From an uncultured Alphaproteobacteria bacterium (GTDB taxonomy: Bacteria > Pseudomonadota > Alphaproteobacteria > Rhizobiales > Xanthobacteraceae): DNA of 64,000 bases. Numbering within the stretch: position 1 is the first letter of the stretch; every line of letters starts with the position of its first letter. Below the pieces are notes generated by a model. The model was given only the letters and a program-made list of their open reading frames with translations. It was not told the origin of the DNA and made no database searches. The position numbers and the translations under genes are program-made. Location of the stretch: positions 25,540-89,539 of the forward strand of contig CAWBFP010000034.1 of the NCBI GenBank assembly GCA_963788095.1. Direction: 5' to 3'. Shown here piece by piece: positions 16,449-57,830 of the stretch.

Positions 16449-16625
16449 CGAATAGCGAATAGCGAATGGCGAATAGTGAATAGTGAATAGTGAATAGTGG
16501 AGGGAACGAGTGGTGGACGCGAATCGGCAAGTTGGAACTTCAACAATGATCTACTCACTACTCACCACTCACTACTCACCACTCGCTATTCGCTATTCGC
16601 CATTCGCCATTCGCCATTCGCCAAG
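16446..16625. repeat. ~180-bp imperfect hairpin built from heptamer repeats (AGCGAAT/GGCGAAT/AGTGAAT x8 on left arm; complementary ACTCACT/ATTCGCC heptamers on right arm)
   Basis: Read directly: tagcgaatagcgaatagcgaatggcgaatagtgaatagtgaatagtgaatagtgg ... ctactcactactcaccactcactactcaccactcgctattcgctattcgccattcgccattcgccattcgcc; fills the livH-livM intergenic gap. Confidence 0.8.
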
Positions 16626-16633
16626 GTGAAGCG

Positions 16634-17710
16634 ATGCTCTACCGCGAAGCCGGCCAGTACAAGACCAGCTATCAGGCCGATCAGTCGGTATTCCCGATCC
16701 TGCAGGACCGGATCGGGCTGGTCGTCATCCTGGTGATTGCGTTTGCGGTCGTGCCACTGACGATGTCGAGCTTCGCGCTGTCATCGATCATGATCCCGGT
16801 GTTGATCTTTTCGCTCGCGGCAATCGGGCTCAACCTGTTGACCGGATACACCGGCCTGCTCTCACTCGGCGCCGCCGGCTTTATGGGGGTCGGCGCCTAC
16901 GCCTGCTACAAGCTCACGACCTATTTTCCAGGCGTCAACATCTTGGTCTGGATCGTCGCCTCCGGCTTCTTCGCCGCCGCGGTCGGGGTGGTGTTCGGGC
17001 TGCCCTCGCTGCGCATCAAGGGCTTCTACCTCGCGGTGGCGACGCTGGCGGCACAGTTTTTCCTGTCCTGGTGCTTCGTGCGCTTGCCGTGGCTCGTCAA
17101 CTACAATGTCTCCGGCGCGATCGAGGTGCCGACCCGCACCCTGTTCGGGGTGCCGGTCACCGGGCCCAACGCCACGCCGATGACCCGTTATCTCGTAGTG
17201 CTCGGCATCGTCACGCTGATGACCTGGGTCGCATCCAACCTGGTGCACGGCCGCATCGGCCGGATGTGGATGGCGGTGCGCGACATGGACATCGCGGCCG
17301 AGCTGATCGGCATCAAGCTCTATCAGACCAAGCTGCTCTCCTTCGCGGTTTCCTCGTTCTACTGCGGCGTTGCCGGCGCCATGATGGTGTTTCTGTGGCT
17401 CGGCGCCGCCGAGGCCGACAGCTTCAACATCAACCAGTCGTTCCTGATCCTGTTCATGGTCATCATCGGCGGGCTTGGCAGCCTGATCGGGTCCTTCTTC
17501 GGCGCGGCGTTCATCTGGGGGCTGCCGATCGTGCTGCGTGCGATGCCGGAGTTCTTCGGCGTCGCGATCCACGCCGCCACCGTCGAGCACTTGCAGTTCA
17601 TGATCCTGGGCGCGCTGATCATCTTTTTTCTGATCGTCGAGCCGCACGGCCTTGCGCGGCTGTGGCAGATCGCTAAGCAGAAGCTCAGGGTGTGGCCGTT
17701 TCCGTACTGA
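16634..17710 (+). CDS. HAAT-family ABC permease (LivM-like)
   Basis: 358 aa polytopic membrane protein, LivM-type. Confidence 0.85.
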   Translation: MLYREAGQYKTSYQADQSVFPILQDRIGLVVILVIAFAVVPLTMSSFALSSIMIPVLIFSLAAIGLNLLTGYTGLLSLGAAGFMGVGAYACYKLTTYFPGVNILVWIVASGFFAAAVGVVFGLPSLRIKGFYLAVATLAAQFFLSWCFVRLPWLVNYNVSGAIEVPTRTLFGVPVTGPNATPMTRYLVVLGIVTLMTWVASNLVHGRIGRMWMAVRDMDIAAELIGIKLYQTKLLSFAVSSFYCGVAGAMMVFLWLGAAEADSFNINQSFLILFMVIIGGLGSLIGSFFGAAFIWGLPIVLRAMPEFFGVAIHAATVEHLQFMILGALIIFFLIVEPHGLARLWQIAKQKLRVWPFPY

Positions 17711-17850
17711 TGGTGCAGACTACGCCTCAAATACCGGTCCCCGCCACGCATGGCGCGGCGACCGGAACCAGGTGCGAGCGGCGGCTGCCGTTCGGCCGCA
17801 AGCAAGAAGGTTGCAATCGCAGCCGACGCTACTCCAAGGGAGAGACACGA

Positions 17851-19185
17851 ATGAAACTGAAACACCTCGTTATCGGCGCAACCGTGCTGGCCATGGCGGG
17901 TATTCCCGTTCTTGCCGGCAAGGCCTTGGCGCAGGACACGATCTACGTGCCGCTGCTGACCTACCGGACCGGACCGTTCGCCGGCTCCGGCATCCCGATC
18001 GCCAATGGGATGAGCGACTATCTCACCATGCTCAACGAGCGCGACGGGGGGATCGGCGGCGTCAAGATCGTCGTCGAGGAATGCGAGACCGGCTACGACA
18101 CCAAGAAAGGCGTCGAGTGCTACGAGCAGGTCAAGGCGAAGAAGCCGGTGGTGATCAACCCGTACTCGACCGGCATCACCCTGCAGCTGATCCCGAAGGC
18201 CGCGGTCGACAAGATTCCGGTGCTGTCGATGGCCTACGGCCTTTCGGCCTCCGCCGACGGGCAGAACTTCCCGTGGATCTTCAACCCGCCGGCGACCTAC
18301 TGGGATGGTCTCTCCATGATCATCAAGTACATCGCCGACAAGGAAGGCGGGCTCGACAAGCTCAAGGGCAAGACCATCGGCTACATCTTCTTCGACGGCG
18401 GCTACGGCCGCGAGCCGATCCCGCTGCTCGAGCAGTTCGCCAAGGACTACGGGTTCACGGTGAAACAGTATCCGGTCCCGGCGGCCGAGATGCAGAACCA
18501 GTCGGGCCTCTGGCTCAACGTCCGGCGCGATCGTCCCAATTGGATGATCATGTGGGGCTGGGGCGCCATGAACCCGACGGCCGTCAAGGAGGCCGCCAAG
18601 ATCAACTATCCGATGGACAAGTTCATCGGTATCTGGTGGTCGGCGAGCGAGGACGACGCGCGCGGCGGCGGTGCCGATGCCAAGGGCTATCTCGCGCTCA
18701 ATCTCAACGGCTTGGGCGCCAACTACCCGGCGATCCAGGACATCGTCAAGCACGTGGTCGACAAGGGCAAGAGCCAGGTCGACAAGAGCAAGGTCGGCGA
18801 GGTGCTGTACAACCGCGGCGTCTACAACTCGCTGCTGGTCGCCGAAGCGATCCGCAACGCGCAGCGCATTACCGGCAAGAAAGTGGTCACCGGTGAGGAC
18901 GTGCGGCGCGGCTTCGAGTTGCTCAAGATCGACGCGGCGCGCTGGAAGGAACTCGGCCTCGAAGGCTTCGGCGCGCCGATCACCAATGTGTCGTGCAGCG
19001 ACCACAACGGCCATCATGCTGCCTACATGATGCAATGGGACGGCGCCAAGTGGGCGAAGGACTCCGACTGGATCATGCCCATGAAGGACAAGGTGCGCCC
19101 GCTCTTGGAAGCGGCTTCCAAGGACTACGTGTCCAAGAACCAGCCGTGGCCGCAGCGCACCGAACCCTGCGACCGCTCGTCGTAG
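17851..19185 (+). CDS. ABC transporter periplasmic substrate-binding protein (Leu/Ile/Val-binding protein family)
   Basis: Signal peptide MKLKHLVIGATVLAMAGIPVLAGKALA; type I PBP fold motifs; RBS aagggagag. Confidence 0.85.
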   Translation: MKLKHLVIGATVLAMAGIPVLAGKALAQDTIYVPLLTYRTGPFAGSGIPIANGMSDYLTMLNERDGGIGGVKIVVEECETGYDTKKGVECYEQVKAKKPVVINPYSTGITLQLIPKAAVDKIPVLSMAYGLSASADGQNFPWIFNPPATYWDGLSMIIKYIADKEGGLDKLKGKTIGYIFFDGGYGREPIPLLEQFAKDYGFTVKQYPVPAAEMQNQSGLWLNVRRDRPNWMIMWGWGAMNPTAVKEAAKINYPMDKFIGIWWSASEDDARGGGADAKGYLALNLNGLGANYPAIQDIVKHVVDKGKSQVDKSKVGEVLYNRGVYNSLLVAEAIRNAQRITGKKVVTGEDVRRGFELLKIDAARWKELGLEGFGAPITNVSCSDHNGHHAAYMMQWDGAKWAKDSDWIMPMKDKVRPLLEAASKDYVSKNQPWPQRTEPCDRSS

Positions 19186-19200
19186 CTGCACGCCCACCGA

Positions 19201-19236
19201 GTTCCCTCTCCCTCGCCCGCGGGGAGAGGGAGCCGG
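19201..19236 (+). terminator. GC-rich hairpin CCCTCTCCC-N9-GGGGAGAGGG immediately after SBP stop (candidate U-tract-less intrinsic terminator/attenuator)
   Basis: Palindrome read in sequence 16 nt after stop codon; no T-run. Confidence 0.35.
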
Positions 19237-19337
19237 TATTGATGGGCGCGTTGCGGGCGCGCGTCCGCCAACGCCCCGACCCGATTGCTTCACGAGCGCG
19301 GCCTTCCGCCGGCGGGGCGAGACGACAGGAGCCTGCG

Positions 19338-20192
19338 ATGAGCGTTGCGGCCGAGCTGAAGCGTGATGAGCCGGCCCCGCGGGCGGCGGTCGACCGCATC
19401 CTTGCGGTCAACAATATCGAGGTCGTCTACGATCACGTCATCCTGGTGCTCAAGGGCGTATCGCTCGAGGTTCCGCGCGGCGGCATCGTGGCGCTGCTCG
19501 GCGCCAACGGCGCCGGCAAGACCACCACGCTCAAGGCGATCTCCAACCTTTTGCACTCGGAACGCGGCGAGGTCACCAAGGGCTCCATCGTGTTCGACGG
19601 CGAGGAGGTGCAGAAGTCCTCGCCCAACGAGCTGGTTCGGCGCGGCTGCATCCAGGTGATGGAAGGCCGCCAATGCTTCGGCCACCTCACGGTGGAAGAG
19701 AACCTGCTGACCGGTGCGTTCACGCGGCGCGATGGAAACGCCGCCATCAAGCGCGACCTGGAGGCGATCTACGGCTATTTCCCGCGCCTCAAGGAGCGCC
19801 GCAATTCGATGGCGGGCTACACTTCGGGCGGCGAGCAGCAGATGTGCGCGGTCGGCCGCGCGCTGATGTCGAAACCGAAGATGATCCTGCTCGACGAGCC
19901 CTCGATGGGGCTCGCGCCGCAGATCGTGGAGGAGATCTTCGAGATCGTGCAGGCGCTCAACGAAAAGGAAGGCGTCTCGTTCCTGCTGGCGGAGCAGAAC
20001 ACCAACATGGCGCTGAAATACGCGCAGTACGGCTACATCCTGGAGAACGGCCGGGTGGTGCTGGACGGCGAGGCCAAGACCCTGCGTGAGAACGAGGACG
20101 TCAAGGAATTCTACCTCGGTGTTGCCGAAGGCAAGCGCAAATCGTTCCGCGAGGTGAAGCACTACAAGCGCCGGAAGCGCTGGCTGGCTTAA
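19338..20192 (+). CDS. ABC transporter ATP-binding protein (LivF-like)
   Basis: Walker A GANGAGKTT, LSGGEQQM signature, Walker B ILLDEPSMGL. Confidence 0.85.
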   Translation: MSVAAELKRDEPAPRAAVDRILAVNNIEVVYDHVILVLKGVSLEVPRGGIVALLGANGAGKTTTLKAISNLLHSERGEVTKGSIVFDGEEVQKSSPNELVRRGCIQVMEGRQCFGHLTVEENLLTGAFTRRDGNAAIKRDLEAIYGYFPRLKERRNSMAGYTSGGEQQMCAVGRALMSKPKMILLDEPSMGLAPQIVEEIFEIVQALNEKEGVSFLLAEQNTNMALKYAQYGYILENGRVVLDGEAKTLRENEDVKEFYLGVAEGKRKSFREVKHYKRRKRWLA

Positions 20193-20204
20193 CGTGTGCG
20201 TGAA

Positions 20205-20400
20205 ACGATCGTAGGGGCGACCCTTGTGGTCGCCCGCCAGATACGTGGGGGCGACCCTTGCGGTCGCCCGCCAGATACGTAGGGGCGACCCTTGTGGTCG
20301 CCCGCCAGGCACGTAGGGGCGACCCTTGTGGTCGCCCGCGTGGTCCCGCGTAGGAGCGACCCTTGTGGTCGCCCATGTGATCCCGCGCAAGGAGACGTTC
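20205..20400 (+). repeat. REP array: 5 tandem ~34-37-bp units each containing palindrome GGGCGACC-cttgtg-GGTCGCCC (BIME-like)
   Basis: cgtaggggcgacccttgtggtcgcccgccagata repeated 5x with minor variants, directly upstream of RAYT gene. Confidence 0.85.
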
Positions 20401-20441
20401 GTCGTCGCCCGCGCGTTACGTCGTTCTCCGGTTCTTACGTC

Positions 20442-20999
20442 ATGATCGCCGACTCACGACCCAACCGCCGCACCATCCGTCTCAAGGACTATGACTACGC
20501 GCAACCCGGCGCGTATTTCGTGACGATCTGTACGCAGGATCGGGCATGTCTGTTTGGCGACGTCATGGATTATACAATGAAACTGAACGCTGCCGGATTG
20601 GTAACGACGCTATGGAACGAGGTTCCGGCTCGCTTTGCCAATGTTGATTTGGATATGTTTGTCGTCATGCCCAATCACATTCACGGGATTTTGCTGTACC
20701 CAGACGACGGGCCGGTCATGGCTGACTGCACGCGGGCGACCACAAGGGTCGCCCCTACGATCGGACAGGTGGTTGGTGCCTTCAAATCGTTGTCCACCGT
20801 CGAGTACGTTCGAAATGTAAATGCAAACGGCTGGCCGGCATTTCATTCACGCCTGTGGCAGCGAAACTATTATGAACACGTCATTCGTGATGAAGCTGAT
20901 TTAGACCGGATCCGCCGATATATCGATGAAAACCCAGCGCGTTGGGAATTTGATGATGAGAACCCACAGCGTGTCGATCGAGCGTCCTCGACTTTGTGA
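20442..20999 (+). mobile_element. REP-associated tyrosine transposase (RAYT, IS200/IS605 Y1 HUH family), 185 aa, containing an in-frame REP copy
   Basis: HUH motif (PNHIHGIL), catalytic Tyr region (RNYYEHVIRDE), GAFKSLST motif; lower GC than surroundings; flanked 5' by REP array; inverted REP at ~20727-20765 encodes ..DCTRATTRVAPT.. Confidence 0.75.
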
Positions 21000-21012
21000 A
21001 CGGTAAGCGAGA

Positions 21013-21378
21013 ATGCCGGAAAAATTTGATCTCGATCACAAATTCTCACTGTTCGCCGAGCACTGGCGGCCGAAGGTGGTCGCCGCGCTCAACGAGCAGG
21101 AGATCAAGCTCGTGAAGGTGCAGGGCACTTTTCCCTGGCATCATCACGACAACGAGGATGAATTCTTCCTGGTGTGGAAGGGCCGCTTCCGCGTCGAGTT
21201 CCGCGACCGCGTCGTCGAGCTCGGCCCCGGCGAGGGTCTGGTCGTTCCGCGCGGGGTCGTACATCGCACCGCCGCCGACCAGGAGGCCGAGATCATCCTG
21301 TTCGAGCCGGCCGCGACCCGTAACACCGGCAACGTCGTCGATGCGGCGTTCACGGCGCCGGACGGCGTCACGGTGTGA
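21013..21378 (+). CDS. cupin domain protein
   Basis: 121 aa; cupin motifs (HHHDNEDEFFLVWKG ... GPGEGLVVPRGVVHR). Confidence 0.7.
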   Translation: MPEKFDLDHKFSLFAEHWRPKVVAALNEQEIKLVKVQGTFPWHHHDNEDEFFLVWKGRFRVEFRDRVVELGPGEGLVVPRGVVHRTAADQEAEIILFEPAATRNTGNVVDAAFTAPDGVTV

Positions 21379-21382
21379 CGCG

Positions 21383-22615
21383 ATGACCGATCACTACGAC
21401 GCGCTCGAGACCCGCGATCGCCTGGCGCGCGAGAACGACCTGTTCGGGCGGCTGCCGGACGCCATCGCCCACGCGATGTCGGCGCCCGGCTGGGCCAATC
21501 ATCTGGCCGGCGTCGAGCCCCGAAAGATCACCTCGCGCCGGATGCTCGCGAGCCTGCCGGTGTTGCGCAAATCCGACCTGCTGCGGCTGCAACAGCAGCG
21601 ACCGCCGTTCGGCGGCTTCGCGGTGATCGCGCCCGGCAAGGCGAAGCGGCTGTTGATGTCGCCGGGCCCGATCTTCGAGCCGGAGGGGCACGGCGAGGAT
21701 CTGGCGGGGGCGGCGCGCGCTCTGTTCGCGGCCGGCACGCGTGCGGGCGACATCGTGCACAACTCGTTCTCCTATCATTTGACGCCCGGCGCCTATCTGC
21801 TGGAATCGGGCGCGCATGCGCTCGGTTGCGCCGTCATTCCGGGTGGGATCGGCAACACCGAACAGCAGGTCGACGCGATCGCCCATTACCGGCCGAGCGG
21901 CTATGTCGGCACGCCGGATTTCCTGAAGATCCTGCTCGATACCGCGGCCAAGAGCGGCAAGGACGCCGCGTCGATCAAGCGCGGCCTGGTCTCCGGCGCG
22001 GCGCTTCCCGCCTCGCTGCGCGACGAGCTCGGCGGGCGCGGCGTCGCGGTGCTGCAGTGCTACGCCACCGCCGAGCTCGGCGTCATCGCCTACGAGAGCG
22101 AGGCGCGCGAGGGCATGATCGTCAACGAGAACCTGATCGTGGAGATCGTGCGGCCGGGCACCGGCGATCCGGTGCCGGACGGTGAGGTCGGCGAGATCGT
22201 CGCCACCTCGTTCAACCCCGACTACCCGATGATCCGGCTGGCGACCGGCGACCTTTCGGCGGTGCTGGCCGGGCAGTCGCCGTGCGGGCGCACCAACATG
22301 CGCATCAATGGCTGGATGGGTCGCGCCGACCAGACCACCAAGGTCAAGGGCATGTTCGTCCATCCCGGACAGGTGGCTGAGGTGGCGCGGCGCCATCCGG
22401 AGCTCGGGCGCGTGCGCCTTGCGGTCGGCCGCGAGGGCGAGCAGGACGTGATGGTGCTGCATGCCGAATGCGCAACGCCGAGCGATGCGTTCGAGCAGAC
22501 GATCGCCGAGACGCTGCAGGCGGTGACCAAGGTCCGTGGCCGCGTGCAGCTGGTGGCGCCCGGCTCGCTGCCCAATGACGGCAAGGTGATCGCCGACGAG
22601 CGAAGCTATGCGTGA
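21383..22615 (+). CDS. phenylacetate-CoA ligase family protein (PaaK/F390 synthetase-like adenylate-forming enzyme)
   Basis: ~410 aa; PaaK-like N-terminus and AMP-binding core (SGYVGTPDFL, ATAELG, GDL..); start at internal Met of ORF 21158..22615, 4 nt after cupin stop. Confidence 0.8.
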   Translation: MTDHYDALETRDRLARENDLFGRLPDAIAHAMSAPGWANHLAGVEPRKITSRRMLASLPVLRKSDLLRLQQQRPPFGGFAVIAPGKAKRLLMSPGPIFEPEGHGEDLAGAARALFAAGTRAGDIVHNSFSYHLTPGAYLLESGAHALGCAVIPGGIGNTEQQVDAIAHYRPSGYVGTPDFLKILLDTAAKSGKDAASIKRGLVSGAALPASLRDELGGRGVAVLQCYATAELGVIAYESEAREGMIVNENLIVEIVRPGTGDPVPDGEVGEIVATSFNPDYPMIRLATGDLSAVLAGQSPCGRTNMRINGWMGRADQTTKVKGMFVHPGQVAEVARRHPELGRVRLAVGREGEQDVMVLHAECATPSDAFEQTIAETLQAVTKVRGRVQLVAPGSLPNDGKVIADERSYA

Positions 22616-25809: not shown

Positions 25810-26735
25810 CGCTCGAGGATGCTCTTCTTGCCGAGCAGGCCGCGCGCCCGGAACGTGACCACGGCGATCAGCAGCAAGTACATGGAGATCAGCGACCAGT
25901 CGGTGGCATAGGCCCCGGTCAGTCCGACGACGATGCCGATCATGAGGCCGGCCAGCACCGCGCCCCAGAAGCTGCCGACGCCACCGAGAACGATGACGAT
26001 GAAGGCCGGCACGACGGCGTCCACGCCGACGTGCGGACGCACGCCCCAGATCGGGGCCATGGTCACGCCGGCGACGGCCGCAAGACCAGTGCCGAAGGCG
26101 AACACGATCAGGCGCAGGCGCGGTAGATTGACGCCGAGCGCTCGCACCATCTCACTGTCGTGCGCACCGGCCTTGATGAGGGCGCCGTAAGGCGTGCGCT
26201 CGAGGAACAGCCACACCAGCAAGATCACGCCGATCGCGAAGGCGGAGGCATAGAACCGATAGGTCGAGTAGATGAGATCGCCGATCAGGAGGCCGCCGGT
26301 GATGCCGGATGGCAGCGGAAACGGCTTCTCCGCCGATCCCCAAATCACCCGGATCAATTCCTCGATCACCAGCGCGGCCCCGAACGTCAGCAGCAGGCCG
26401 TAGAGCGGGTCCTTGCCGTAGGTGCGCCGCAGGCAAAGCTCGAGCGCCATGCCGGCAATTCCGACCACCAGCGGCGCCGCAATGATGGCGACGACGAACC
26501 GCCAGGCCAGCGGAAGTCCGTAGTAGGGCGCCAGGAACTCGAAAGGCAGCGCGCCGGGCGGCAGGATGAAGACGAGCGCCACATACGCGCCGAGCGCAAA
26601 CAGCGAGCCGTGCGCGAGGTTGAGCACCTCCATCACGCCGACGATCAGCATGAAACCGAGTGCGACCAGCGCGAACAGCAGGCCAAGCGAAATGCCGTTG
26701 AGAAGGTGCGGCAGGAGATTGTAGAAGAAATCCAT
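25806..26735 (-). CDS. HAAT-family ABC permease (LivH-like)
   Basis: 309 aa polytopic membrane protein; 4-bp overlap with downstream permease. Confidence 0.8.
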   Translation of the reverse strand: MDFFYNLLPHLLNGISLGLLFALVALGFMLIVGVMEVLNLAHGSLFALGAYVALVFILPPGALPFEFLAPYYGLPLAWRFVVAIIAAPLVVGIAGMALELCLRRTYGKDPLYGLLLTFGAALVIEELIRVIWGSAEKPFPLPSGITGGLLIGDLIYSTYRFYASAFAIGVILLVWLFLERTPYGALIKAGAHDSEMVRALGVNLPRLRLIVFAFGTGLAAVAGVTMAPIWGVRPHVGVDAVVPAFIVIVLGGVGSFWGAVLAGLMIGIVVGLTGAYATDWSLISMYLLLIAVVTFRARGLLGKKSILER

Positions 26736-26974
26736 GACGTGGCCGACGACGTTAGGCGCAAGCCGGCAAGCACTGCGGACGACAAATCAACGGATATCGC
26801 GACACTTTACCTCTCAACCTGGGCCGTTTCACACCCTCGACCTCGCTCCGGTGCGCGAGACAAGGTCGAAGGGCGGCCCACGCGTCGACCTCGCGGGGCT
26901 TGCGGCCCAGCTAAGGAATCCGGGCCTGCGGGCTGCCGGCCTCAGCCCCAGGGCCGCCCGCAGGCTCGTGAAGC

Positions 26975-28258
26975 CTACATCTCGTAGGTTGGCGTGTCCT
27001 GGTAGGCCTCGAGCTTGCAGACGGACTCGCCCGGATCCTTCACGTCTTCCGGTTTGAGCGCCGTGACGATCTTGAAGTAGTCGGTATTGTCGACCGGCTT
27101 GTCGTTGGCGGCGCACAGGTAGACGGTCTGTTGCACGTGGTGCGAGTTGGGATCGATCCACGCGTCATGGTGCTGCATGCGGTCGACCGCCAGCATGCGA
27201 TGCCCCTCCAGCGCCTTGATCACCGCGATGTTGTTGGTGGTTCCGGCGCGTTCGACGGCACGGATCAGTTCGCGCATGGCGACATAGCCATTGTAGGAGA
27301 CGTTGCCGGGCACATCGATCGCGGCACGCGGCCAGCGCTTCTGGTAGCGGGCGACAAAGTCGGTGACGCCGGGCAGGTCGAGCTTGTGGTACCAGGTGGT
27401 CGCGAAGGTGCCGAAGGCGGCATCGAGACCCAAGCCGTAGATATCCGGCCAGTCCTGCTGATTGGTGAGCCAGGCCGGTTTCTTGTCGAGCTTCATGCTC
27501 ACGACCTGCTGTTTGAGCGTCTTGGCGTCGTCGCCGCCGACCGCGACCGTGACCACATCCGGTTTCGCCTGCTGGATCTTTAAGAGAATCGGCGAGAAAT
27601 CGCGGGTGCCGACCGGGACCAGGATTTCGTCGAACACCTCGGCGCCGAATTGCGTGCCGACGTCGCGGAACGACTTGGAGGTGTTATGGCCCCACACATA
27701 GTCGTTGGTGAGCAAGAGCCAGCGCTTGCCGTAGCTGTTGATCGCCGCCTTGGCGCCGGCGATGGCGAAGTTTGTCCCGTTGCCGTCCCACACGAATTTG
27801 ACGCGATGGCAGTCCTTGCCGGCTTCCGTCGGCGAGGACGAGTTGGTGTTGAAGTACACGGTGCCGTATTTCTGCGCCACTTGCCCGATGGCGTTGGCGA
27901 CGCCCGACTGGATGGCGCCGACCAGGAACGCGACCTCGTTGCGGGTAATCATGCGTTCGGCGACGCGCGTCCCGGTCGCCGGCGTGGTCTCGGTGTCGGC
28001 GTGGATGTGCGCGAGCTTGCGCCCGAGGACACCGCCTTTTTCGTTGGCCTCCTCGATCGCCATGACGGTGCCGCGCATCTCGTCCTGGCCGGCATTGCCG
28101 AACTGACCCGTGGCGTCGTGCGTGAGGCCGATCAGGATCGGCTTGTCGGTCTTCTGCGCCCAAACGTGGTTGTGCTTCCAAGGACCGAAGAAGGCGACAC
28201 CGGCAGCGGTCGTCCCCTGCAGCAGTGTCCGGCGTGAAAGCCGCGCTTTGCTCGTCAT
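26975..28258 (-). CDS. ABC substrate-binding protein (Leu/Ile/Val-binding family) with twin-arginine signal
   Basis: N-terminus MTSKARLSRRTLLQGTTAAGVAF (Tat motif SRRTLL); type I PBP. Confidence 0.8.
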   Translation of the reverse strand: MTSKARLSRRTLLQGTTAAGVAFFGPWKHNHVWAQKTDKPILIGLTHDATGQFGNAGQDEMRGTVMAIEEANEKGGVLGRKLAHIHADTETTPATGTRVAERMITRNEVAFLVGAIQSGVANAIGQVAQKYGTVYFNTNSSSPTEAGKDCHRVKFVWDGNGTNFAIAGAKAAINSYGKRWLLLTNDYVWGHNTSKSFRDVGTQFGAEVFDEILVPVGTRDFSPILLKIQQAKPDVVTVAVGGDDAKTLKQQVVSMKLDKKPAWLTNQQDWPDIYGLGLDAAFGTFATTWYHKLDLPGVTDFVARYQKRWPRAAIDVPGNVSYNGYVAMRELIRAVERAGTTNNIAVIKALEGHRMLAVDRMQHHDAWIDPNSHHVQQTVYLCAANDKPVDNTDYFKIVTALKPEDVKDPGESVCKLEAYQDTPTYEM

Positions 28259-28438
28259 GGCATGTCCTCCCCTGGATGATTTGGAATTTTGTGATGCGGC
28301 GCGAGAAATCCACCGGCCGCGAGCTTTTTCGTCAGGTTATCATACGACTGCCACACCGTCGCGCAAGCTTGCGAGAATCGCGGGCGGAAATGCCGGGGCC
28401 CCCATCGTCGCCGGGCCTGCGCGCGTCGGTTGCGCGGC

Positions 28439-29990
28439 TCACCTCGCCACCAGCCGCCCATCGACACCCGTCCGCACCGTGCCGAGCCGGCGGATATAGG
28501 CCATCACCTCGTTGGCCATGAGCGGCGCGTCGTTGTCGGGCGTCACACGCTTGGCGTCGCGAAAGGTGTCATAGCCGTCGCCGCCGCGCGCGATGAAATC
28601 GTTGACGGCGACGCGATAGAGCCGCGTGTCGGAGAGCGGCGCGCCCGCCACCGTCATGGCCAGCACACGGCTGCCTGGCGGCCGCCGCGGATCGAAGCTG
28701 ATGGTCATGCCCGACACCTGGGGGAAACGCCCGGCCATATCCGGCAGCTGGGAGAGGCCGTTCTCGATCGCCGCGTTGAGGTCGCGGCCGGCAATTTCGA
28801 GCACCACCAGGCGATTGCCGAAGGGCAGTTCGGCCAGGATGTCCTTGCGCGTGATGGTCGTGCCCGGGGGATAGACCTTGCCGCCGCGGATGCCGCCGCC
28901 GTTGGCGACCGCGGCGTCCGCCCGCATCGTGTCGCGCATGGCGTCGGCGAACAGGTCGCCGATCGCCGCCTCGCCCAACCGCACCGTGGCGCTGCGGCTG
29001 TCGAGCTCGACCGCCGTGGTGCCGATCGCAACGTCCATTCCACGGGTGAGCGTGGCCTCGAACTTGGCGACCTCGGCGGCGACCACCGGATCCGGCGTCA
29101 CGGTCGCGGTATCGATGACCCGGAACTGCGGCCACCACTTGGTCTCGCGCCGGCCCTGGCTGACGGTCACGACGATGCTGATGTCGATTGCGACCACGTA
29201 GTGGGCGTCGTAGCTCGAACTCGGCGATCGCGCTCAGCTCGTCGTAGGTGATGAACAGATCGTGGGTGTGACCGGTGAGCAGGAGGTCGGCGGCGCGGGC
29301 AAACTGCAGGGCAAGTGCGTCGCCGCGGGTCATATGCGCCACGGCGACCACGAAATCGGCGCCCTCCCGTCGCAGCGCCGCCGCCTGCGCCTTTATGGTC
29401 TCGACCGTCGGGGCGAAGCGTAGATCCTCGGGCGAGGCGGTCTGCGGCGTATCCTCGAAGGTCGCGCCGGTCAAGCCGATGCGGACGCCGTCGAGCTCGA
29501 CCACGGCGCGGTCCTTGATTCCGGCAATCGGCGCGCCGTCCGGTCCACGCAGGTTGGCGGCGAAGATCGGGAAATTGGCTTCGCCCATGCGCTCGAGGAA
29601 CGTCGCCTTGCCGAAATCGAACTCGTGATTGCCGGGCGCGAAGATGTCGGGCCGGATCATGTTGGTGAGCGCGATGATGTGCGCGCCGCGATCGAGCCCG
29701 GACATCAGCGAGGGTGACAGCGTATCGCCACCATGCGCAAAGATGACATGCCCGCCCTTGGCGCGCTCGGCCTTGACCACCGCGGCCAGCCTTGCGAAGC
29801 CGCCCCGGCTCTTGCCATCGAACATGACCTGCTCGTTCATCAGGTATATGTCGTTGGTGAGCAGGAAGGTGATGGCGGTCCGGTGCGTGGTCTGCGCGGT
29901 TGCCGGCGGCGCCAGGCCGACGACCGCCAAAACGGCGAGGGAGAGCACAATGGCGCGGCGCGTGATCGACATGGCGGCTCCTGACGACAT
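28439..29990 (-). pseudogene. bifunctional metallophosphatase/5'-nucleotidase (UshA-like), single frameshift near 29200-29230 splitting metallophosphatase N-domain (28569..29990 frame) from 5'-nucleotidase C-domain (28439..29197 frame)
   Basis: N-part: signal peptide, GDTLSPS, GNHEFD, GHTHD motifs; C-part 5'-NT C-terminal domain (GGIRGG, FPQVSGM); frames meet at ..AIAEFEL / YDAHYVVAIDI. Confidence 0.7.
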
Positions 29991-30099
29991 GCCGGTGCCT
30001 TACCACGCGGGCGTCGCCGCGAGCTACAGGCCGGCATGAACGAGAAGAGCTCGAGCTTCACGGCCGTCGGAGCAGCCGCTGCCGCCGCAGCATCCGGCC

Positions 30100-31102
30100 G
30101 TGGCGCGCGGCCGCATCGGCGTCCTGCTGGTCAATCTCGGCACGCCGGACGCGACCGACTACTGGTCGATGCGCCGCTACCTGAAGGAATTCCTGTCCGA
30201 CCGCCGGGTGATCGAGGAGAACCGCCTCAAGTGGTGGTTGATCCTCAATCTCATCGTCCTGACGGTCCGGCCGCGGCGCAAAGGGGCGCGACTACGACAA
30301 GATCTGGAACCGGGAACGCGACGAATCGCCGCTCAAGACCATCACCCGTGCGCAAGCCGAGAAGCTGGCGGCGTCGCTCGCGCCGGTCGCATCCGAGCAT
30401 CATCGTCGACTGGGCGATGCGCTACGGCAATCCGTCGATCCCGTCGCGCCTGGCGAGCCTGCAGGCGCAAGGCTGCGAGCGCATCCTGCTGGTTCCGCTC
30501 TATCCGCAATACTGCCGCCGCCACCACCGCGACGGTGTGCGACAAGGCCTTTCGATGCGCTCAAGCGCATGCGCTGGCAGCCGGCGCTGCGGGTGGCGCC
30601 GCCTTACCACGACGACCCGGTCTACATCGAGGCGGTGGCATCGTCGCTCGAGGCGGAGCTCGCCGAAGCTGCCGTTCAGCCCGAGGTCGTCATCGCCTCG
30701 TTCCACGGCGTGCCGAAGGACTATCTCGCACAAGGGCGACCCATACCATTGCCATTGCGTCAAGACGCGCGGCTGCTGCGCGAGCGGCTCGGGCCTGGAC
30801 GAGGAGCAGCTTGATGCTGACGTTCCAGTCGCGCTTCGGCACGCGCCGAATGGCTGCAGCCCTACACCGACGAGACCGTCAAGGCGCTGGCCAAGCGCGG
30901 CGTCAAGCAGCTCGCCGTCGTCACGCCCGGCTTCGCGGCCGACTGCCTGGAGACGCTGGAAGAGATCGCCGGCGAGAACGCCGAGATCTTCAGGCATGCC
31001 GGCGGCGAGAACTTTGCCGCGATCCCGTGTCTCAACGACGGCGAGCAAGGAATGCACCTGATCCGCCACGTCGTTCTGCGCGAGTTGCAGGGCTGGATCT
31101 GA
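30100..31102 (+). pseudogene. hemH: ferrochelatase with ~9 reading-frame changes; all segments recognisable
   Basis: Segments in three frames reassemble into full HemH: [33 protein letters not shown] / [26 protein letters not shown] / [38 protein letters not shown] / [12 protein letters not shown] / [28 protein letters not shown]...[12 protein letters not shown] / [10 protein letters not shown] / ARLLRERLG / LDEEQL / MLTFQSRFG / [46 protein letters not shown]...[23 protein letters not shown]. Confidence 0.8.
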
Positions 31103-31137
31103 CCGATTCCCACCATTGCGAGCCGAAGGCGAAGCAA

Positions 31138-31232
31138 TCGAGCGAGTGGCGAATAGCGAGTGGCGAATGGCGAGAGGGATTGGCGAGTGGCGACCTCTCC
31201 ATTCGCCATCGCTATCGCTGTCGCTATTCGCA
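31138..31232. repeat. second member of heptamer-hairpin repeat family (AGCGAGT GGCGAAT AGCGAGT GGCGAAT ... ATTCGCC ATCGCTA TCGCTGT CGCTATT)
   Basis: Same GCGAAT-type heptamers arranged as inverted arms in hemH-SPFH intergenic region. Confidence 0.7.
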
Positions 31233-31344
31233 TGATTCGCCGCGACGCTCCCTGCAATGACGAACAAGGCCGCGGCTTGCCTATTGCTGCGGCCCGGCGC
31301 GGGTTCCACAATCCGGCGCACGACGCGATCAGGGGGCCTCTCGC

Positions 31345-32367
31345 ATGTTTCCGCTCGGACTGGACATCTTCGTCATCGTCATCGTCGTGCTTGCCGTCCT
31401 CACCTTGTTCGCCGGCGTCAAGACCGTCGGCGCAAGGCTACAAGTGGACGGTCGAGCGCTTCGGCCGCTACATCCGCACGCTGTCGCCGGGCCTCAACCT
31501 GATCGTGCCGTACTTCGACCGCATCGGCCGCAAGATGAACATGATGGAGCAGGTGATCGAGATCCCGCAGCAGGACGTGATCACCAAGGACAACGCCACG
31601 GTCACGGTCGACGGCATCGCGTTCTTCCAGGTCTTCGATGCCGCCAAGGCGAGCTACGAGGTGTCCAATCTCGACCATGCGATCGTGCAGCTCACGATGA
31701 CCAACATCCGCTCGGTGATGGGCGCGATGGACCTCGACCAGATGCTTTCGCACCGCGACGAGATCAACGAGCGGCTGTTGCGCGTGGTCGACGCCGCGGT
31801 GTCGCCCTGGGGCGTCAAGGTCAACCGGATCGAGATCAAGGACATCATCCCGCCGGCCAATCTGGTCGAGGCGATGGGGCGGCAGATGAAGGCCGAGCGC
31901 GACAAGCGGGCCGAGATCCTGCAGGCCGAGGGCCAGCGGCAGTCCGAGATCCTGCGCGCCGAAGGCGCCAAGCAGTCGCAGATCCTCGAGGCCGAAGGGC
32001 GCCGCGAGGCGGCCTTTCGCGACGCCGAGGGCCGCGAGCGCCTCGCCCAGGCCGAAGCCAAGGCGACCGAGATGGTGAGCGAGGCGGTGGCGCGCGGCGA
32101 CGTCGCAGCTCTCAACTACTTCGTCGCCGAGAAGTACCTCAAGGCGTTCGCGCAACTTGCCGAATCGCCGAACCAGAAGATTCTCATGCTGCCGATCGAG
32201 GCGACGAGCGTGCTGGGCGCGCTCGGAGGCATCGGCGAGATCGCGCGCGCGACCTTCGGTCCGGACGGCAGGCCGCCGGCGCCGCCGGCGTCGACGACAC
32301 GGCGTCCCACCGGTGCCGCCGACAAGCCCTGGCGGCGTGGTCGTCAGACCGGGCGGACCGATCATGA
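31345..32367 (+). pseudogene. SPFH/band-7 (stomatin-like) protein, frame-disrupted at ~31425 and near C-terminus
   Basis: N-term TM MFPLGLDIFVIVIVVLAVLTLFAGVKTV in frame 1; SPFH core (QGYKWTVERFGRYIRTLSPGLNLIVPYFDRIG...EIKDIIPPANLVEAMGRQMKAERDKRAEIL..) in frame 2; frame-1 stop 32365-32367 overlaps nfeD ATG (ATGATGA). Confidence 0.7.
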
Positions 32368-32815
32368 TGAACGCACTCGTCGGCCTTGGCGTATGGAACT
32401 GGTTCATCCTCGGCGGCGTGCTGCTTGCGCTCGAGATCATTGCGCCCGGCACCTTCATGCTGTGGCTTGGGCTCTCGGCCATCGCGGTCGGGCTGATCTC
32501 GCTCGTCGATCGTTTGGCCGTGGCAGGCCCAGCTGGTCGCGTTCGCGGTGCTCTCGATCGCCTCGATCGTGCTGTGGCGCCGCTTCGGCGGGAAGGCGGA
32601 CGAGGTCCGCTCGCAGCCCTTCCTCAATCGGCGGGCGGAGGGATTCGTCGGCCGGGTATTCACGCTGGAACGGCCGATCGTCGACGGCGCCGGCGCGGTC
32701 CGGATCGGCGACACCATGTGGCAGCGTGAGGGGGCCGGACTCGCCTGCCGGCTCGCGCGTCAAGGTCAGCGACGCCGACGGGCCGGTCCTGATCGTGGAG
32801 CCGACCCGGGAATAG
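32364..32815 (+). pseudogene. NfeD-family membrane protein (partner of SPFH protein), 2 frame changes (~32505, ~32730)
   Basis: MMNALVGLGVWNWFILGGVLLALEIIAPGTFMLWLGLSAIAVGLISLV / ..SIASIVLWRRFGGKADEVRSQPFLNRRAEGFVGRVFTLERPIVDGAGAVRIGDTMWQ / ..GPDSPAGSRVKVSDADGPVLIVEP in three frames; NfeD OB-fold C-terminus. Confidence 0.6.
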
Positions 32816-33871
32816 CTACGCCACGCCGGCGCGCAAGAGATGGTGGAAGTGGACGATGCCGACCGGCTTGCCCGCATCGACCACCAGCAGGACCGACACT
32901 TTCGAGCTGTTGAGCAGTTCGAGCGCCTCGCTCACCAGCTGGTCGGGCCGCACGGTCTTCGGATCGCGCGACATGATGGCCTCGACCGCCACGTCCGGCA
33001 GGTCGGGCCGCAGCTGCCGCCGCAAATCACCGTCGGTGATGATACCGACGAGCTGTCCGGCACGGTCGGTGATGCCGACACAGCCCGCAACATACTCGCC
33101 TCCCTTGCGCGACATTTCGACGGCCGCCCGCGCCACGCGAGTGCCGAGCGGCGCCAGCGGCACGGCGTCGCCGGTCTGCATGACGTCGCGCACGAACTTG
33201 AGCTGGGCGCCGAGCCTGCCGCCGGGATGGAACACGCGGAAATCGATGGCGGTAAAGCCGCGGCTCTCCAACAGCGCGATCGCCAGTGCATCTCCGAGCA
33301 CGAGCTGCATCAGGGAGGACGTCGTCGGGGCCAGGTTGTGCGGGCAGGCTTCGCGCGCCGGCGGCAGCACCAAGGCGACCTCGGCGGCCTTGCCGAGCGT
33401 GCTGCCGGCATTGGCGGTGACCGCAATGAGGCCGATACGAAACCGCCGCGAATAGTCGGTCAGGTCCTTGAGCTCGACGGTCTCGCCCGACCACGACAGC
33501 GCCAGGATCACGTCGTCGGCGGTGATCATGCCGAGGTCGCCGTGGCTCGCCTCGCTCGGGTGGACGAAGAAGGCGGGCGTGCCGGTGGAGGCGAACGTCG
33601 CCGCGATCTTGCGCCCGACATGGCCCGACTTGCCCATGCCGGTGACGATCACGCGGCCGCGTGCGCCATGCATCAGCTCGACCGCCGCCGCGAACGCCGG
33701 TCCGAGGTCCGCCCGCATGGCCGCCGTGAGCTCGGCAATGCCACCCGCCTCGGCATCGAGCGTGCGCTCGGCCGACTCGATCAGCGCCCGCGTACGGTTG
33801 CGTGCGTCGGTGCGTGGTCGGGTCGTGGGCATGCGGTCCGGAATCAGGGAACGGTGGGGAGGAGATAGCAC
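32816..33871 (-). CDS. kpsF: KpsF/GutQ-family arabinose-5-phosphate isomerase (SIS + tandem CBS domains)
   Basis: SIS motif VIVTGMGKSGHVGRKIAATFASTGTPAFFVHPSEASHGDLG; two CBS domains at C-terminus; start may be internal (MPTTRP). Confidence 0.8.
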   Translation of the reverse strand: MLSPPHRSLIPDRMPTTRPRTDARNRTRALIESAERTLDAEAGGIAELTAAMRADLGPAFAAAVELMHGARGRVIVTGMGKSGHVGRKIAATFASTGTPAFFVHPSEASHGDLGMITADDVILALSWSGETVELKDLTDYSRRFRIGLIAVTANAGSTLGKAAEVALVLPPAREACPHNLAPTTSSLMQLVLGDALAIALLESRGFTAIDFRVFHPGGRLGAQLKFVRDVMQTGDAVPLAPLGTRVARAAVEMSRKGGEYVAGCVGITDRAGQLVGIITDGDLRRQLRPDLPDVAVEAIMSRDPKTVRPDQLVSEALELLNSSKVSVLLVVDAGKPVGIVHFHHLLRAGVA

Positions 33872-33994
33872 GAACCGGGCCCCGGCGGCGACCGCCGGGG
33901 CCCGGTCAACCCGGCGTTAACCATAGCCGTTTTATCCCCGTTAACCAGGGCCCGCCAGCCGCGAGGATGTCGCCCGTGCCTCGCGTTCGCTGCG

Positions 33995-34876
33995 CTAGCC
34001 GTTGCTCAGCAGCCGTTTGAGCTCCTCCCGGAATTCCGGCGCGATGTCATCGCGTGCCAGCGCATAGGCCACGTTGGCGGCGAGGAAACCGATCTTGGAA
34101 CCGCAATCGAAGATGCGGCCGTCGAAGCGGTAGCCGAAGAACGGCTGCGCATCGGCAAGCGTTCGCATGGCGTCGGTGATCTGGATCTCGCCGCCGGCGC
34201 CTGCGGCCTGGGTCTCGAGCAATGCAAAGATTTCCGGGTGCAGGATGTAACGCCCGGAGATCATCAAGTTCGACGGCGCCTGCGCCGGCGTCGGCTTCTC
34301 GACCATCGAGGTGACGCGAAAGCCCTTCCCGCGCGCCTCGCCGACGCCGACGATGCCGTATTGCGACACTTGCTCGCGCGGAACCTCCGACACCGCGATG
34401 ACGTTGCCGCCGCCGGTCTCGGCGTACACTTCAATCATTCCGGCGAGGCAGCCGGGCGCTGCCGCATGATGCAGCATGTCAGGGAGCAGCAGCGCGAACG
34501 GCTCGTTGCCGACCAGTTCGCGCGCGCACCACACCGCATGGCCGAGGCCCAGCGGCTCTTGCTGGCGGGTGAAGCTCGTCTGCCCGGCGCCGGGAAGCTC
34601 GGCTTCGAGCAAATCGAGCTCCGCGCTCTTGCCGCGCCTTTGCAAGGTGGCCTCGAGCTCGAACTGCTTGTCGAAATGATCCTCGATCACCCCCTTGTTG
34701 CGCCCGGTCACGAAAATGAAATGCTCGATACCGGCCTGGCGGGCCTCGTCGACCACGTGCTGGATCACCGGTCGGTCGACGACCGGCAGCATCTCTTTCG
34801 GCATCGCCTTGGTGGCAGGCAGGAAGCGCGTGCCGAGGCCCGCGACGGGAAAAACGGCTTTGCGGATGGGCTTCAT
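33995..34876 (-). CDS. galU: UTP-glucose-1-phosphate uridylyltransferase
   Basis: [45 protein letters not shown].. canonical GalU N-terminus; 293 aa. Confidence 0.85.
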
Positions 34877-35046
34877 GATCGGTCGAGCAGCGGGGGAGGG
34901 GCGGGAATCGCGATTTGCCCAACAGGCACAAATCCTTGGTGTGGGCAAGGGTTCCCATGGGCGCGCCGGCGGCCGGCTGCCAACAAGCTGCCACACGCGC
35001 GCCGCCCTTCGGGTCGACAATTCATGGGCATCTTGCAGGGAGTGCG

Positions 35047-36388
35047 ATGAGACGGTCGAAGCTGATTGCGAGCGCGGCTGCGTTGGCGGCGACTTTCGTC
35101 GGTGTCGTCAACGTGCAGGCGCAGGTGGACGAGCGGCTGCCGATCACGCTGCCACCGGTCGGATCGATCGGCTCCACCCTTGAGCCGGCGGCGCGCGAAT
35201 GGAGCGGGCAGGCGGGCGCGTCGGGTCATCCGCTCATGTCGGTCGAGGCGATCCAAGGCGCAGCCGCCAATTTTCCAGCTTGCATCGAGGGCCTATGGCC
35301 GGCCGCCGCGCGTCGCGGCATCTCGCGCCAAAGTTTTGACCGGCACGCGGCGGGGCTGACGCCCGATCTGCGCATCATGGACCTGCTCGATGCGCAGCCG
35401 GAGTTCGAGAAAGCGCTGTGGGAGTACCTCGACCTCCTGGTTACCGAGGAACGCATTGCGCGCGGCCGCGAACTCCTGGCGCAGCACAAGGCGACCTTCG
35501 ACGCCGTCGAGAACGCCTACGGGATCGACCGCCACGTGGTGGCGGCGATCTGGGGCGTCGAGACCAAGTTCGGGGCGATCACCGGCGAGCGTCCGCTCGT
35601 CCGCTCGACCGCCACGCTCGCCTGCGTCGGCCGGCGTCAGGACTATTTCCAGAATGAGTTCCTGGCGGTGCTGGAGATTCTCCACAACGGCGACGTCGCC
35701 GCCGATCAGCTCAAGGGCTCGTGGGCGGGGGCCTTCGGCGGCACGCAATTCATGCCCACCGTCTTCAAACGCTACGCCGTCGATTTCGACCGCGACGGAC
35801 CGCCGCAACCTGGTCGGGTCGATACCCGATCTGATCGCATCGACCGCCAACTACCTCAAGCAACACGGCTGGGTCGCGGGCCAGCCGTGGGGCTACGAGG
35901 TCGTCGTGCCCCAAAACTTCGACTATCGGCTGGCCGACCGCGCACGGGTGCAAACGATCCGGCAGTGGGAGCAGCTCGGCATCCGACGCACCGGCGGCAG
36001 GCCCTTCGAGCGGTCCGACGAGCGAGCCTACCTGTTGGTACCGGCAGGCGCCCGCGGCCCCGGTTTCCTGATGCTCGCCAATTTCCGCGCGATCATGCGC
36101 TACAATCCGGCAGAGGCCTACGCGCTGGCGATCGGACACCTCGCCGACCGTTTGCGGGGCGGCGAGCCGTTCCTGCAGCAGTGGCCGCGCGACGAACGCG
36201 TGTTGTCGCGCACCGAGCGATTGGAGCTGCAGCAGCGGCTGGCAAGCCGCGGGTTCGATATCGGCGAGCCCGATGGACGCTTCGGCCCCAAAACTCGCGC
36301 GGCGATCCGCGACTATCAGGCCGGCGCCGGGCTGGTTCCGGACGGGTTTGCATCTGGCGCGCTGCTGACGCGGTTGCGTGCGCAATAG
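35047..36388 (+). pseudogene. lytic murein transglycosylase (MltB family, C-terminal peptidoglycan-binding domain), one frameshift at ~35795
   Basis: Signal peptide [25 protein letters not shown]; MltB motifs (HVVAAIWGVETKFG, GSWAGAFGGTQFMP); after ..AVDFDRDG frame shifts to ..RRNLVGSIPDLIASTANYLKQHGW..; PG-binding repeat (LQQRLASRGFDIGEPDGRFGPKTRAAIRDYQ). Confidence 0.75.
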
Positions 36389-36485
36389 TCTTGCAGCGCC
36401 GCCAGAAGCCTATACCTTCGAGTTGACACTTTCCTCGGCTATCGGCGTTGATCCTCCGAGGGCGCATTCGCGAAGGCGAGCAGGC

Positions 36486-38146
36486 ATGGATCGCAGGGCC
36501 AAATCCGAACCGAGCCATCGCCGCACTGGGCTTTCGGCGGCGTTGCTGGCTGCCGGTTGGCTGGCGGTCGAGGGCGCCGCCGCCTTGGTCGGCGTGAGCG
36601 CGGTGGCGGTCCCGGCGCAAGCGCAGTTCTTTGACTTCTTCTCGCGTCCGCCCGGCTCGATTCCTGGTGGCGGGTACCAGCAGCGCAATCGGCAGCAGCA
36701 GCAGCGCGAACGCGGGTTCGGTTTCGGGTTTTTCGGCGGTGGCAATTGGAATTACCAGCAGCAGGACCCTTGGGCGCCGCCGCCGCCGCGCCGGGTCGAG
36801 CGGCCGCAGGTCGAGCGGCCGCAGCCGCAGGGGGATTTCAGCAAGGCGCCCCCGCCGGCGCGCAAGGAGGCCGACGCCCCCATCAGCGTCTTGGTGCTGG
36901 GGAACTCGATGGCCGATTGGCTTGCCTACGGTTTGGAGGACGCGTTCTCCGACACGCCCGAGCTTGGTGTCACGCGTCGCCATCGCACCGGGTCGGGCTT
37001 GCTGCGTAGCGAAGGCCGCGACGCCTACGACTGGGTGCAGGGGGCCAAGGATTCGCTGGCGCGCGACAAGGCGGACTTCGTCGTGATGATGATCGGACTT
37101 GGCGATCGTCACCCGATCCGCGAGCGCCAACCGGCGCGCGCGAACCAACCGGCGGGGCAGAAACCGGGTGAGCCGGCCAAGCCGGCGGAGGCCCCCAAGG
37201 CCGCCGATCCGGCCAAGCCTGCGAACCGCAAAGCCTGCCGAAGTCGCCAAGCCCGCCGAAACGGCAAAGGCCGGCGACAGCCAGGAAGCCGAAGTCCCGG
37301 CTCCGGAACAGCCCGCGCCCGCCGGGCCGGAGACTCGGGCGTCCTGGGGCCGTCGTATCGTATGAGTTCCGCTCCGACAAATGGAGCGAGATCTATGGCA
37401 GGCGCATCGACGAGACGATCGCCGCGCTGAAGACCAAGCGGGTGCCGGTCATATGGGTCGGCCTGCCGCCGATTCGCGGGACGCGATCGCGCGCCGAGGT
37501 GTCGTTCCTGAACGAAATGTACAAGGCGCGAGCAGAGAAAGCGGGGACCGTCTACGTCGATGTCTGGGACGGCTTCATGGATGAATCCGGCGAGTTCTCG
37601 AACTTCGGGCCGGACATCATCGGGCAGAACCGCCGCCTGCGCGCCGGCGACGGCGTGCACTTCACCAAGGCTGGCGCGCGCAAGCTCGCGCACTATGTCG
37701 AGCGCGAAATTCGCCGGTTGCTCAACCAAGCGACCCCGGTCGCGTTGCCGATTCCTGATGAACCGCAGAAACCCTTGGCCGTGCCGCAGCCGAGCGGCCC
37801 TGCGCCGCGGCCGGTAGCCGGACCGGTGGTGCCACTGACCGGGCACACGCCCGCCGCGGAAGCGCTGCTCGGGAGCGCCGGGCAAGGCAACATCACGGCC
37901 GATTCGGTTGCGGTGCGCGTGCTGGTGAAGGGCGAGCCGGTCGAAGCGCCTAGCGGCCGAGCTGACCATTTTTCCTGGCCGCGCACCGATGGCGCCGCCG
38001 CCGACCAGATCGAGCCGGCGGACCCGATCGCGTCCGCCCAGCCTCGCCCGGCCGCTCCGGCGGCCGCGGCGCGCGCGGCTCTCCCGCGCGCGGGCCAACG
38101 GCCGCCGGCGCAGTCGGACGCGAAGCCGGCGCGGGCCGTGCGTTAG
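36486..38146 (+). pseudogene. SGNH/GDSL hydrolase family protein (DUF459-like) with internal Pro/Ala/Lys-rich low-complexity insert; at least 2 frame changes (~37225 and 37355-37363, the latter a 5-bp tandem duplication tcgta-tcgta)
   Basis: N-part: signal/TM, Q-rich region, VLVLGNSMADWL (GDS(L)-like block); C-part in another frame: SYEFRSDKWSEIYGRRIDETIAALKTKRVPVIWVGLPPIRG...DGVHFTKAGARKLAHYVEREI. Confidence 0.6.
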
Positions 38147-40578: not shown

Positions 40579-45294
<4,716 letters not shown>

Positions 45295-45726
45295 CGTCGT
45301 CCCCTTGCGGGCCGGCAACCGGCCCGGCGTATCCGCCTCGCCCGCGGTGCGTCGCACACCGCGGCCGCAAGGCCGATCAGTTGTCGGTAGCGGCTCTTTT
45401 GGTGCCGCCTGATCAGCGCCCGCTGGGGCACCTTGCCGCTTGAGCCATCCGCGGTGCCCGAACGCACCGCCTCCTGGCCTCATTCCACGCCGGCGCCGGG
45501 GGTACGGCCCATCTTCGGCGGCGGGCGGGGCTCACTTAAGTCAGTAATGCTGTCCTATCTGTACCCTGCCAAATTTTCGATGTCGAGACAAGGGTAGAAT
45601 GTTCCAAAGATACGCATTTCAGGGGAATTTTGATAGTCGCTGTCCGCAGGAGCGGCATTTCCGCAATGTTGTTTCGCGGGCTCGGTAGGGCGGGTGGCTG
45701 CCTTGGCTCAGGGCTCCCGACGGGCT

Positions 45727-56057: not shown

Positions 56058-56234
56058 TAATTCGATCAATGAGTTGACCCGCGCGATGGGCAGCCGGGCC
56101 CGGCAGCCCTCTTGCCTTTTGTGCGGCGCAATGTCATATTTTGCGTTGCGGTAGCTGTGCTGCCGCTGCCCTCCTTGGGCGTTTCCTCCCTAGACTTGGC
56201 CGCCATTCGCTGGCGGCCTTTTTTTCCCGGCCGC

Positions 56235-57755: not shown

Positions 57756-57830
57756 GGGCGCGTAGCTCAGCGGGAGAGCACTACGTTGACATCGTAGGGG
57801 TCGCTGGTTCGATCCCAGCCGCGCCCACCA
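57756..57830 (+). tRNA. tRNA-Val (anticodon GAC)
   Basis: Cloverleaf folded by eye: acceptor GGGCGCG/CGCGCCC, D-arm GCTC-AGCGGGA-GAGC, anticodon stem CTACG/CGTAG with loop TTGACAT, T-arm GCTGG-TTCGATC-CCAGC, 3' ACCA encoded. Confidence 0.85.

Follow-up and report, generated by a model that had tools for sequence, protein, structure and literature searches.

The ferrochelatase gene hemH found in the analysed stretch of 64,000 nucleotides (in the following referred to as the window) is broken by 12 single-base insertions or deletions (indels). It shares this damage with five unrelated neighbouring genes and an intergenic spacer, all residing in one patch of 8.1 kb which very probably represents a local unpolished or low-coverage consensus carrying the traces of an indel-only error process. 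The real hemH of the organism most likely codes for an intact ferrochelatase of 352 amino acids (aa), and the neighbouring genes are most likely intact, too.

Since close orthologues open with MNE(N/K)SS and have a length of 352 aa, the start of hemH was placed at the ATG at position 30036. In a preceding inspection of the letters alone (the sequence-only reading) the gene had been taken to begin at 30100, which is downstream of the first hemH frameshift, and this frameshift was therefore missed. The claim that canonical HemH can be read by hopping between frames was borne out, in that a three-frame translation of positions 30036-31110 recovers all conserved blocks quoted there, spread over the three frames of the plus strand. 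With respect to the approximately nine frame switches reported, the switching itself was confirmed but the count was too low, as nucleotide alignments to relatives (L081-L089, see below) fix 12 window-specific 1-bp indels, i.e., ten insertions and two deletions, the position of each being ambiguous by 1-3 nt. The gene, its indels and the resulting in-frame segments (with the codon start modulo 3 in parentheses), all on the plus strand, are:

30036-31102, plus strand: hemH (ferrochelatase) coding sequence (CDS), broken into segments by 12 indels of one base each
near 30056 (C), 30279 (C), 30382 (G), 30514 (G/T) and 30550 (T), plus strand: 1-bp insertions in hemH
near 30663 (C), 30728 (G/A), 30790 (C), 30808 (A) and 30843 (G), plus strand: further 1-bp insertions in hemH
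near 30679 and 30766, plus strand: 1-bp deletions in hemH, one missing C each
30036-30055 (0), 30057-30278 (1), 30280-30381 (2), 30383-30513 (0) and 30515-30549 (1), plus strand: in-frame segments
30551-30662 (2), 30664-30678 (0), 30679-30727 (2) and 30729-30765 (0), plus strand: in-frame segments
30766-30789 (2), 30791-30807 (0), 30809-30842 (1) and 30844-31102 (2), plus strand: in-frame segments

The frame path accordingly reads 0,1,2,0,1,2,0,2,0,2,0,1,2, giving 12 switches, and the deposited coding information for HemH is scattered over 13 segments in three frames without forming an uninterrupted open reading frame (ORF). A frameshift-aware protein-to-DNA alignment using HemH from five GTDB relatives recovers the protein from end to end, in the right order and with 9-11 changes of frame, and the long ORFs listed over hemH are mostly in the wrong frame.

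Removal of the ten extra bases and restoration of the two missing ones result in exactly 1059 nt, corresponding to 352 codons and a stop codon, with no internal stop. The supposition that reverting single-base indels would restore one ORF is thus confirmed, and as the reversion yields one stop-free, full-length ORF, the frame-hopping pattern is not a product of chance. The corrected protein scores 280.5 bits with the TIGR00109 hemH profile (cut-off 124.6 bits), spanning profile positions 3-321 of 322, and is identical in 340 of 352 residues to P0002, a protein named ferrochelatase by JGI. Like canonical proteobacterial HemH (TIGR00109 / PF00762) it is full-length and typical, and the gene order 5'-nucleotidase - hemH - Band_7 - NfeD is likewise conserved; unlike canonical HemH, however, no single deposited ORF reaches the family cut-off, the two longest scoring 22.1 and 38.8 bits, respectively. 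The motifs FHG(V)P and DCLETLEE are present and identical to those of the orthologues, and the His of FHG.P and the Glu of DCLETLEE are residues which we take to have roles in the catalytic site. The residues private to the HemH of the window are conservative and are seen again in more distant homologues, and compared to GTDB representatives the C-terminus has at most 80% amino-acid identity. Two intact proteins of the window gave no match in exact look-ups.

A protein search with the stitched HemH retrieved intact 352-aa ferrochelatases with 92-95% identity from JGI metagenomes. Six contigs carrying P0002 (L081-L086), originating from six metagenome samples and having 97-98% nucleotide identity to the window, were used for comparison together with the more distant lineages L087 (P0013), L088 (P0006) and L089, in all three of which HemH is intact and 352 aa long. 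L081-L086 also have the gene order of the window, namely periplasmic binding protein, 5'-nucleotidase, HemH, Band_7, NfeD, SIS/CBS, NTP_transferase, SLT_2 and DUF459. None of the 12 hemH indels occurs in L081-L086, L087 or L088, and of the seven that fall into the part covered by L089 none is present there either. The same holds true for the other indels that the window has inside genes, each of which is lacking in every relative covering the respective site (L081-L086, L087, L088, L089), and all genes of the patch are intact and syntenic in each of the related populations sampled. As to substitutions, the divergence from L082 is mosaic, with a dS of 0.018 in the 5'-nucleotidase gene (28439-29972), 0 in NfeD (32364-32815) and 0.05-0.10 in adjoining genes; this mosaic divergence from relatives with 97% identity suggests that co-occurring soil strains have recently recombined.

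As HemH is still encoded by every segment, one might think of recoding, with each junction being bridged by programmed ribosomal frameshifting, by transcriptional slippage or by RNA editing. Genes expressed by programmed frameshifting, such as prfB (+1) and dnaX (-1), rely on one slippery site which is conserved among their orthologues and accompanied by stimulatory elements. While their products are, like HemH here, encoded in more than one frame, hemH would need 12 junctions at unrelated sites, ten of +1 and two of -1, which have no slippery motif or homopolymer in common, and since the orthologues are uninterrupted at 12 of 12 sites, not one of these sites is conserved. Even with an efficiency of 50% per site the yield would by simple arithmetic be about 0.02%, and the same lesions occur in neighbouring genes and in non-coding DNA. 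With the orthologues intact and the junctions devoid of a motif, programmed frameshifting or recoding of hemH is excluded, the residual probability being practically nil.

The sequence-only reading had placed the damage at 30100-31102 and had centred on hemH, the essentiality of heme and the search for a second hemH. The damage to hemH is real, but it is not confined to this interval, as the same type of lesion runs from 29218 to 37336, and the focus on heme turned out to be beside the point, because the same 1-bp indels break five unrelated neighbours and a spacer:

29218-37336: indel-rich patch (8.1 kb) with 22 single-base indels in six CDSs, plus spacer deletions
28439-29972, minus strand: 5'-nucleotidase/metallophosphatase (510 aa in relatives), 1-bp insertion at about 29218, absent in five of five covering relatives
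31103-31344: spacer between hemH and Band_7, nine 1-bp deletions (31175, 31209, 31215, 31220, 31234, 31245, 31313, 31328, 31332)
31345-32367, plus strand: Band_7/SPFH (339 aa in relatives), three 1-bp insertions (about 31431, 32312, 32351)
32364-32815, plus strand: NfeD (149 aa in relatives), two 1-bp insertions (about 32507, 32725)
35047-36388, plus strand: SLT_2/PG_binding_1 lytic transglycosylase (446 aa in relatives), 1-bp insertion at about 35800
36486-38146, plus strand: DUF459/GDSL-like (553 aa in relatives), two 1-bp deletions (about 37222, 37226) and one 1-bp insertion (about 37336)

Besides the 12 indels of hemH, ten 1-bp indels are thus found in five neighbouring genes between 29218 and 37336. 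Indel density is highest at 30056-31431, and the part from 32726 to 35799 has no in-gene indel at all. Along the patch the indels come in runs: those between 29218 and 30843 are mostly insertions, the next nine (31175-31332) are deletions, and these are followed by five insertions (31431-32725). They are specific for the window, 1 nt in size, spatially clustered, and blind to the identity of the gene and to coding or non-coding status. It is because the same damage crosses five neighbouring genes and the spacer that the patch is considered to be almost certainly poor consensus and not biology.

With respect to the spacer, the deletions at 31313, 31328 and 31332 are unique also in comparison to L087, L088 and L089. 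A heptamer-repeat hairpin lies at about 31140-31245, and four of the nine deletions disrupt the 7-nt register in its right arm. As other spacers differ by 1-2 bp indels between lineages, some of the remaining deletions between hemH and Band_7 may, however, be natural spacer variation.

The hairpin is one of the intergenic hairpin elements at 31140-31245 and 16429-16640 that are built of 7-nt repeats, the left arm consisting of GGCGAAT/AGCGAGT and the right arm of ATTCGCC/ATTCGCT. In the copy at 31140-31245, G.U pairing is possible only in a transcript of the plus strand. L082 shares this hairpin behind hemH with the window, whereas L087 and L088 lack it in the corresponding spacer. The copy at 16579 differs from its counterpart in L083 by an indel of 21 bp (3 units). 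These elements look like a dispersed REP/MITE-like repeat family. A further repetitive element is a tandem array of units of about 34 nt at 20206-20410 and 20729-20763, each unit having the palindrome GGGCGACCCTTGTGGTCGCCC. The array sits in a non-coding stretch of 826 nt (20187-21012), has a perfectly complementary 32-nt copy 494 nt downstream and differs by several small indels between the window and L083; it resembles a REP/BIME-like cluster.

In the other approximately 56 kb of the window no within-gene frame switches were found by Viterbi frame tracking based on codon usage and trained on intact relatives, where, given that two shifts less than about 60-100 nt apart which compensate each other escape the tracker, this result reads as no uncompensated frameshift outside the patch. 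The rate of same-strand frame switches is 0.34/kb in the window compared to 0.15-0.39/kb in intact control loci, and those outside the patch are the ordinary boundaries of adjacent genes. Also in the approximately 9.5 kb outside the patch that are covered by close relatives (16448-22602 and 25939-29217), every indel is intergenic. Genome-wide sequencing error was considered as well and was rejected, because within-gene frame switches are confined to about 29.2-37.4 kb and the overall rate equals that of the control loci. No long repeats of the patch, whose duplication might have caused polishing to fail, were found within the window.

Several other elements of the window were recorded in the course of these scans. 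Among the same-strand switches flagged by the frame tracker are two small adjoining ORFs on the plus strand, at 5833-6117 and at about 6106-6487, which are separate genes, the first being HigB-type toxin-like (FNIKGNSYRLVVSVDFEKGIVWIKWIGTHRDYD) and the second HigA-type antitoxin-like with an HTH region. One long gene outside the patch, at 40582-45351 on the minus strand, is intact, forming one coding segment that runs over 4770 nt (about 1590 aa) with no interruption. The minus-strand gene at 2501-4468 contains a direct repeat of 300 nt (3653-3952 and 4037-4336) with 70% identity and a spacing of 384 nt, which suggests a duplicated protein domain. Rfam and tRNA scans revealed nothing near hemH; elsewhere on the plus strand they identified an sRNA of the mmgR/suhB family at 56161-56233 (65.8 bits compared to a gathering score of 41) and, near to it, a tRNA-Val (GAC) at 57756-57830.

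If the lesions were taken at face value, hemH and, independently of it, five neighbours would have been inactivated by genuine pseudogenisation, and heme would be supplied by a second ferrochelatase encoded elsewhere or by the environment. The disabling frameshifts, 12 in hemH, are after all physically there in the deposited sequence, a second hemH might be located in the genome beyond the 64-kb window, and real bacterial pseudogenes with 3-10 indels exist (PMC6054270). In the leaf-nodule symbiont Ca. Burkholderia, pseudogenes likewise consist of a recognisable gene with several independent frameshifting indels (PMC6054270). However, within the window no second ferrochelatase could be found, and hemH has no sign of relaxed selection: with the indels projected out its dN/dS is 0.26 at a dS of 0.068, the flanking genes having a dN/dS of 0.07-0.25 and a dS of 0.02-0.10. 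NfeD, despite two frameshifts, has 0 substitutions in 450 nt when compared to L082, and in the patch as a whole there is no excess of substitutions alongside the indels. The contention that natural decay is implausible is thus substantiated by values for hemH that are no different from those for the flanking genes.

The indel spectrum points in the same direction. All 22 indels in CDSs are exactly 1 nt in size, and insertions outnumber deletions by 18 to 4. In contrast, 151 real bacterial pseudogenes have 396 deletions compared to 300 insertions, with long-tailed (power-law) sizes (PMC6054270), and the insertion excess of the window deviates from the pseudogene insertion fraction of 300/696 with p = 2.4e-4. 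The Ca. Burkholderia pseudogenes to which these counts refer, being the product of reductive evolution, in addition show raised non-synonymous divergence, as opposed to the dN/dS of 0.26 and the equally hit neighbours of the window. Natural coding indels between the lineages compared here are multiples of three (36692, 36806 and 36818, as well as 32327 and 32333 jointly). That six unrelated adjoining genes plus a spacer should have decayed while the surrounding 56 kb stayed clean, and while all genes of the patch are intact and in synteny in every related population sampled, further speaks against genuine pseudogenisation, which is therefore considered very unlikely.

The expectation that the indels would be found in short homopolymers or short tandem duplications did not hold for most of them, as only 6 of the 18 insertions in CDSs extend a mononucleotide run compared to 49% expected for random insertions. 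Therefore, replication slippage is not the source of these insertions, and homopolymer-type platform error does not account for them either. The inserted bases (9 C, 6 G, 2 A and 1 T) roughly follow base composition.

A second biological scenario assumes a very recent burst of localised frameshift mutagenesis in the chromosome of a living cell, e.g., by error-prone break-repair synthesis, leaving a cluster of +1 and -1 events over an 8-kb tract. In favour of this scenario is the observation that the events are clustered, with insertions and deletions occurring in runs such as the nine consecutive deletions at 31175-31332, and also the lack of a rise in substitutions would fit a single recent event. 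However, a cell losing its ferrochelatase together with five other genes at once would have to survive and to dominate the sample, and a scan of the metagenome collection laid out to pick up either configuration across 30766/30790 did not find that of the window, the single match being an intact contig. No bacterial process is known to us by which some 30 single-base indels not due to slippage would arise over 8 kb with no accompanying substitutions. A mutagenic mechanism of this kind is accordingly regarded as extremely improbable. Highly improbable, too, is the corresponding view of the organism, according to which the approximately 30 indels are real and stem from one very recent burst that knocked out ferrochelatase and five neighbouring genes in a soil alphaproteobacterium now living on exogenous heme or on a second enzyme. 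If the indels were real after all, they would imply an unknown process of localised frameshift mutagenesis, and nothing found here favours it.

We are thus left with the very probable explanation, namely a local failure of the consensus. The deposited consensus would have retained uncorrected single-base errors between about 29.2 and 37.4 kb, most densely at 30.05-31.45 kb, and the underlying error process would have been one that generates only indels and has no tie to homopolymers. From the pattern of the indels we infer a technical origin and a putative type of platform: they would fit a consensus built from single-molecule long reads at low coverage or left unpolished, or else a gap filled with long reads, in an assembly that would otherwise be accurate. 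Against an artefact it can be argued that the absent homopolymer bias does not match the commonest error mode of ONT, 454 or Ion Torrent sequencing. Moreover, the strict confinement to one patch requires a special circumstance, such as locally reduced coverage, polishing that failed or the filling of a gap.

Spurious pseudogenes derived from assembly or consensus errors are well documented, and coverage, platform and assembler have been named as their causes (Cooley & Wright 2024, PMC11017572; for indels that fragment genes in assemblies of long reads, Lorv & McConkey 2025, PMC12007338). In these reports single-base indels likewise fragment conserved genes, irrespective of gene function, and the genes are likewise intact in near-identical genomes. 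In contrast to the hemH patch, however, the errors described there are assembly-wide and not restricted to one region of about 8 kb, and the hemH patch differs from them also by its lack of a homopolymer association (PMC11017572, PMC12007338).

The main value of these observations lies in quality control and in an annotation warning for this assembly, whereas their biological interest is low. They also illustrate how a patch of this kind may be distinguished from gene decay without recourse to the reads, i.e., by comparison to near-identical contigs, by indels that are all 1 nt in size, by a distribution that ignores gene boundaries, and by a low dN/dS after correction. Automatic annotation of the deposited sequence would call the ferrochelatase missing or pseudogenised and five other genes broken. 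Such an annotation could in turn imply heme auxotrophy or genome decay in this alphaproteobacterium, which almost certainly has neither.
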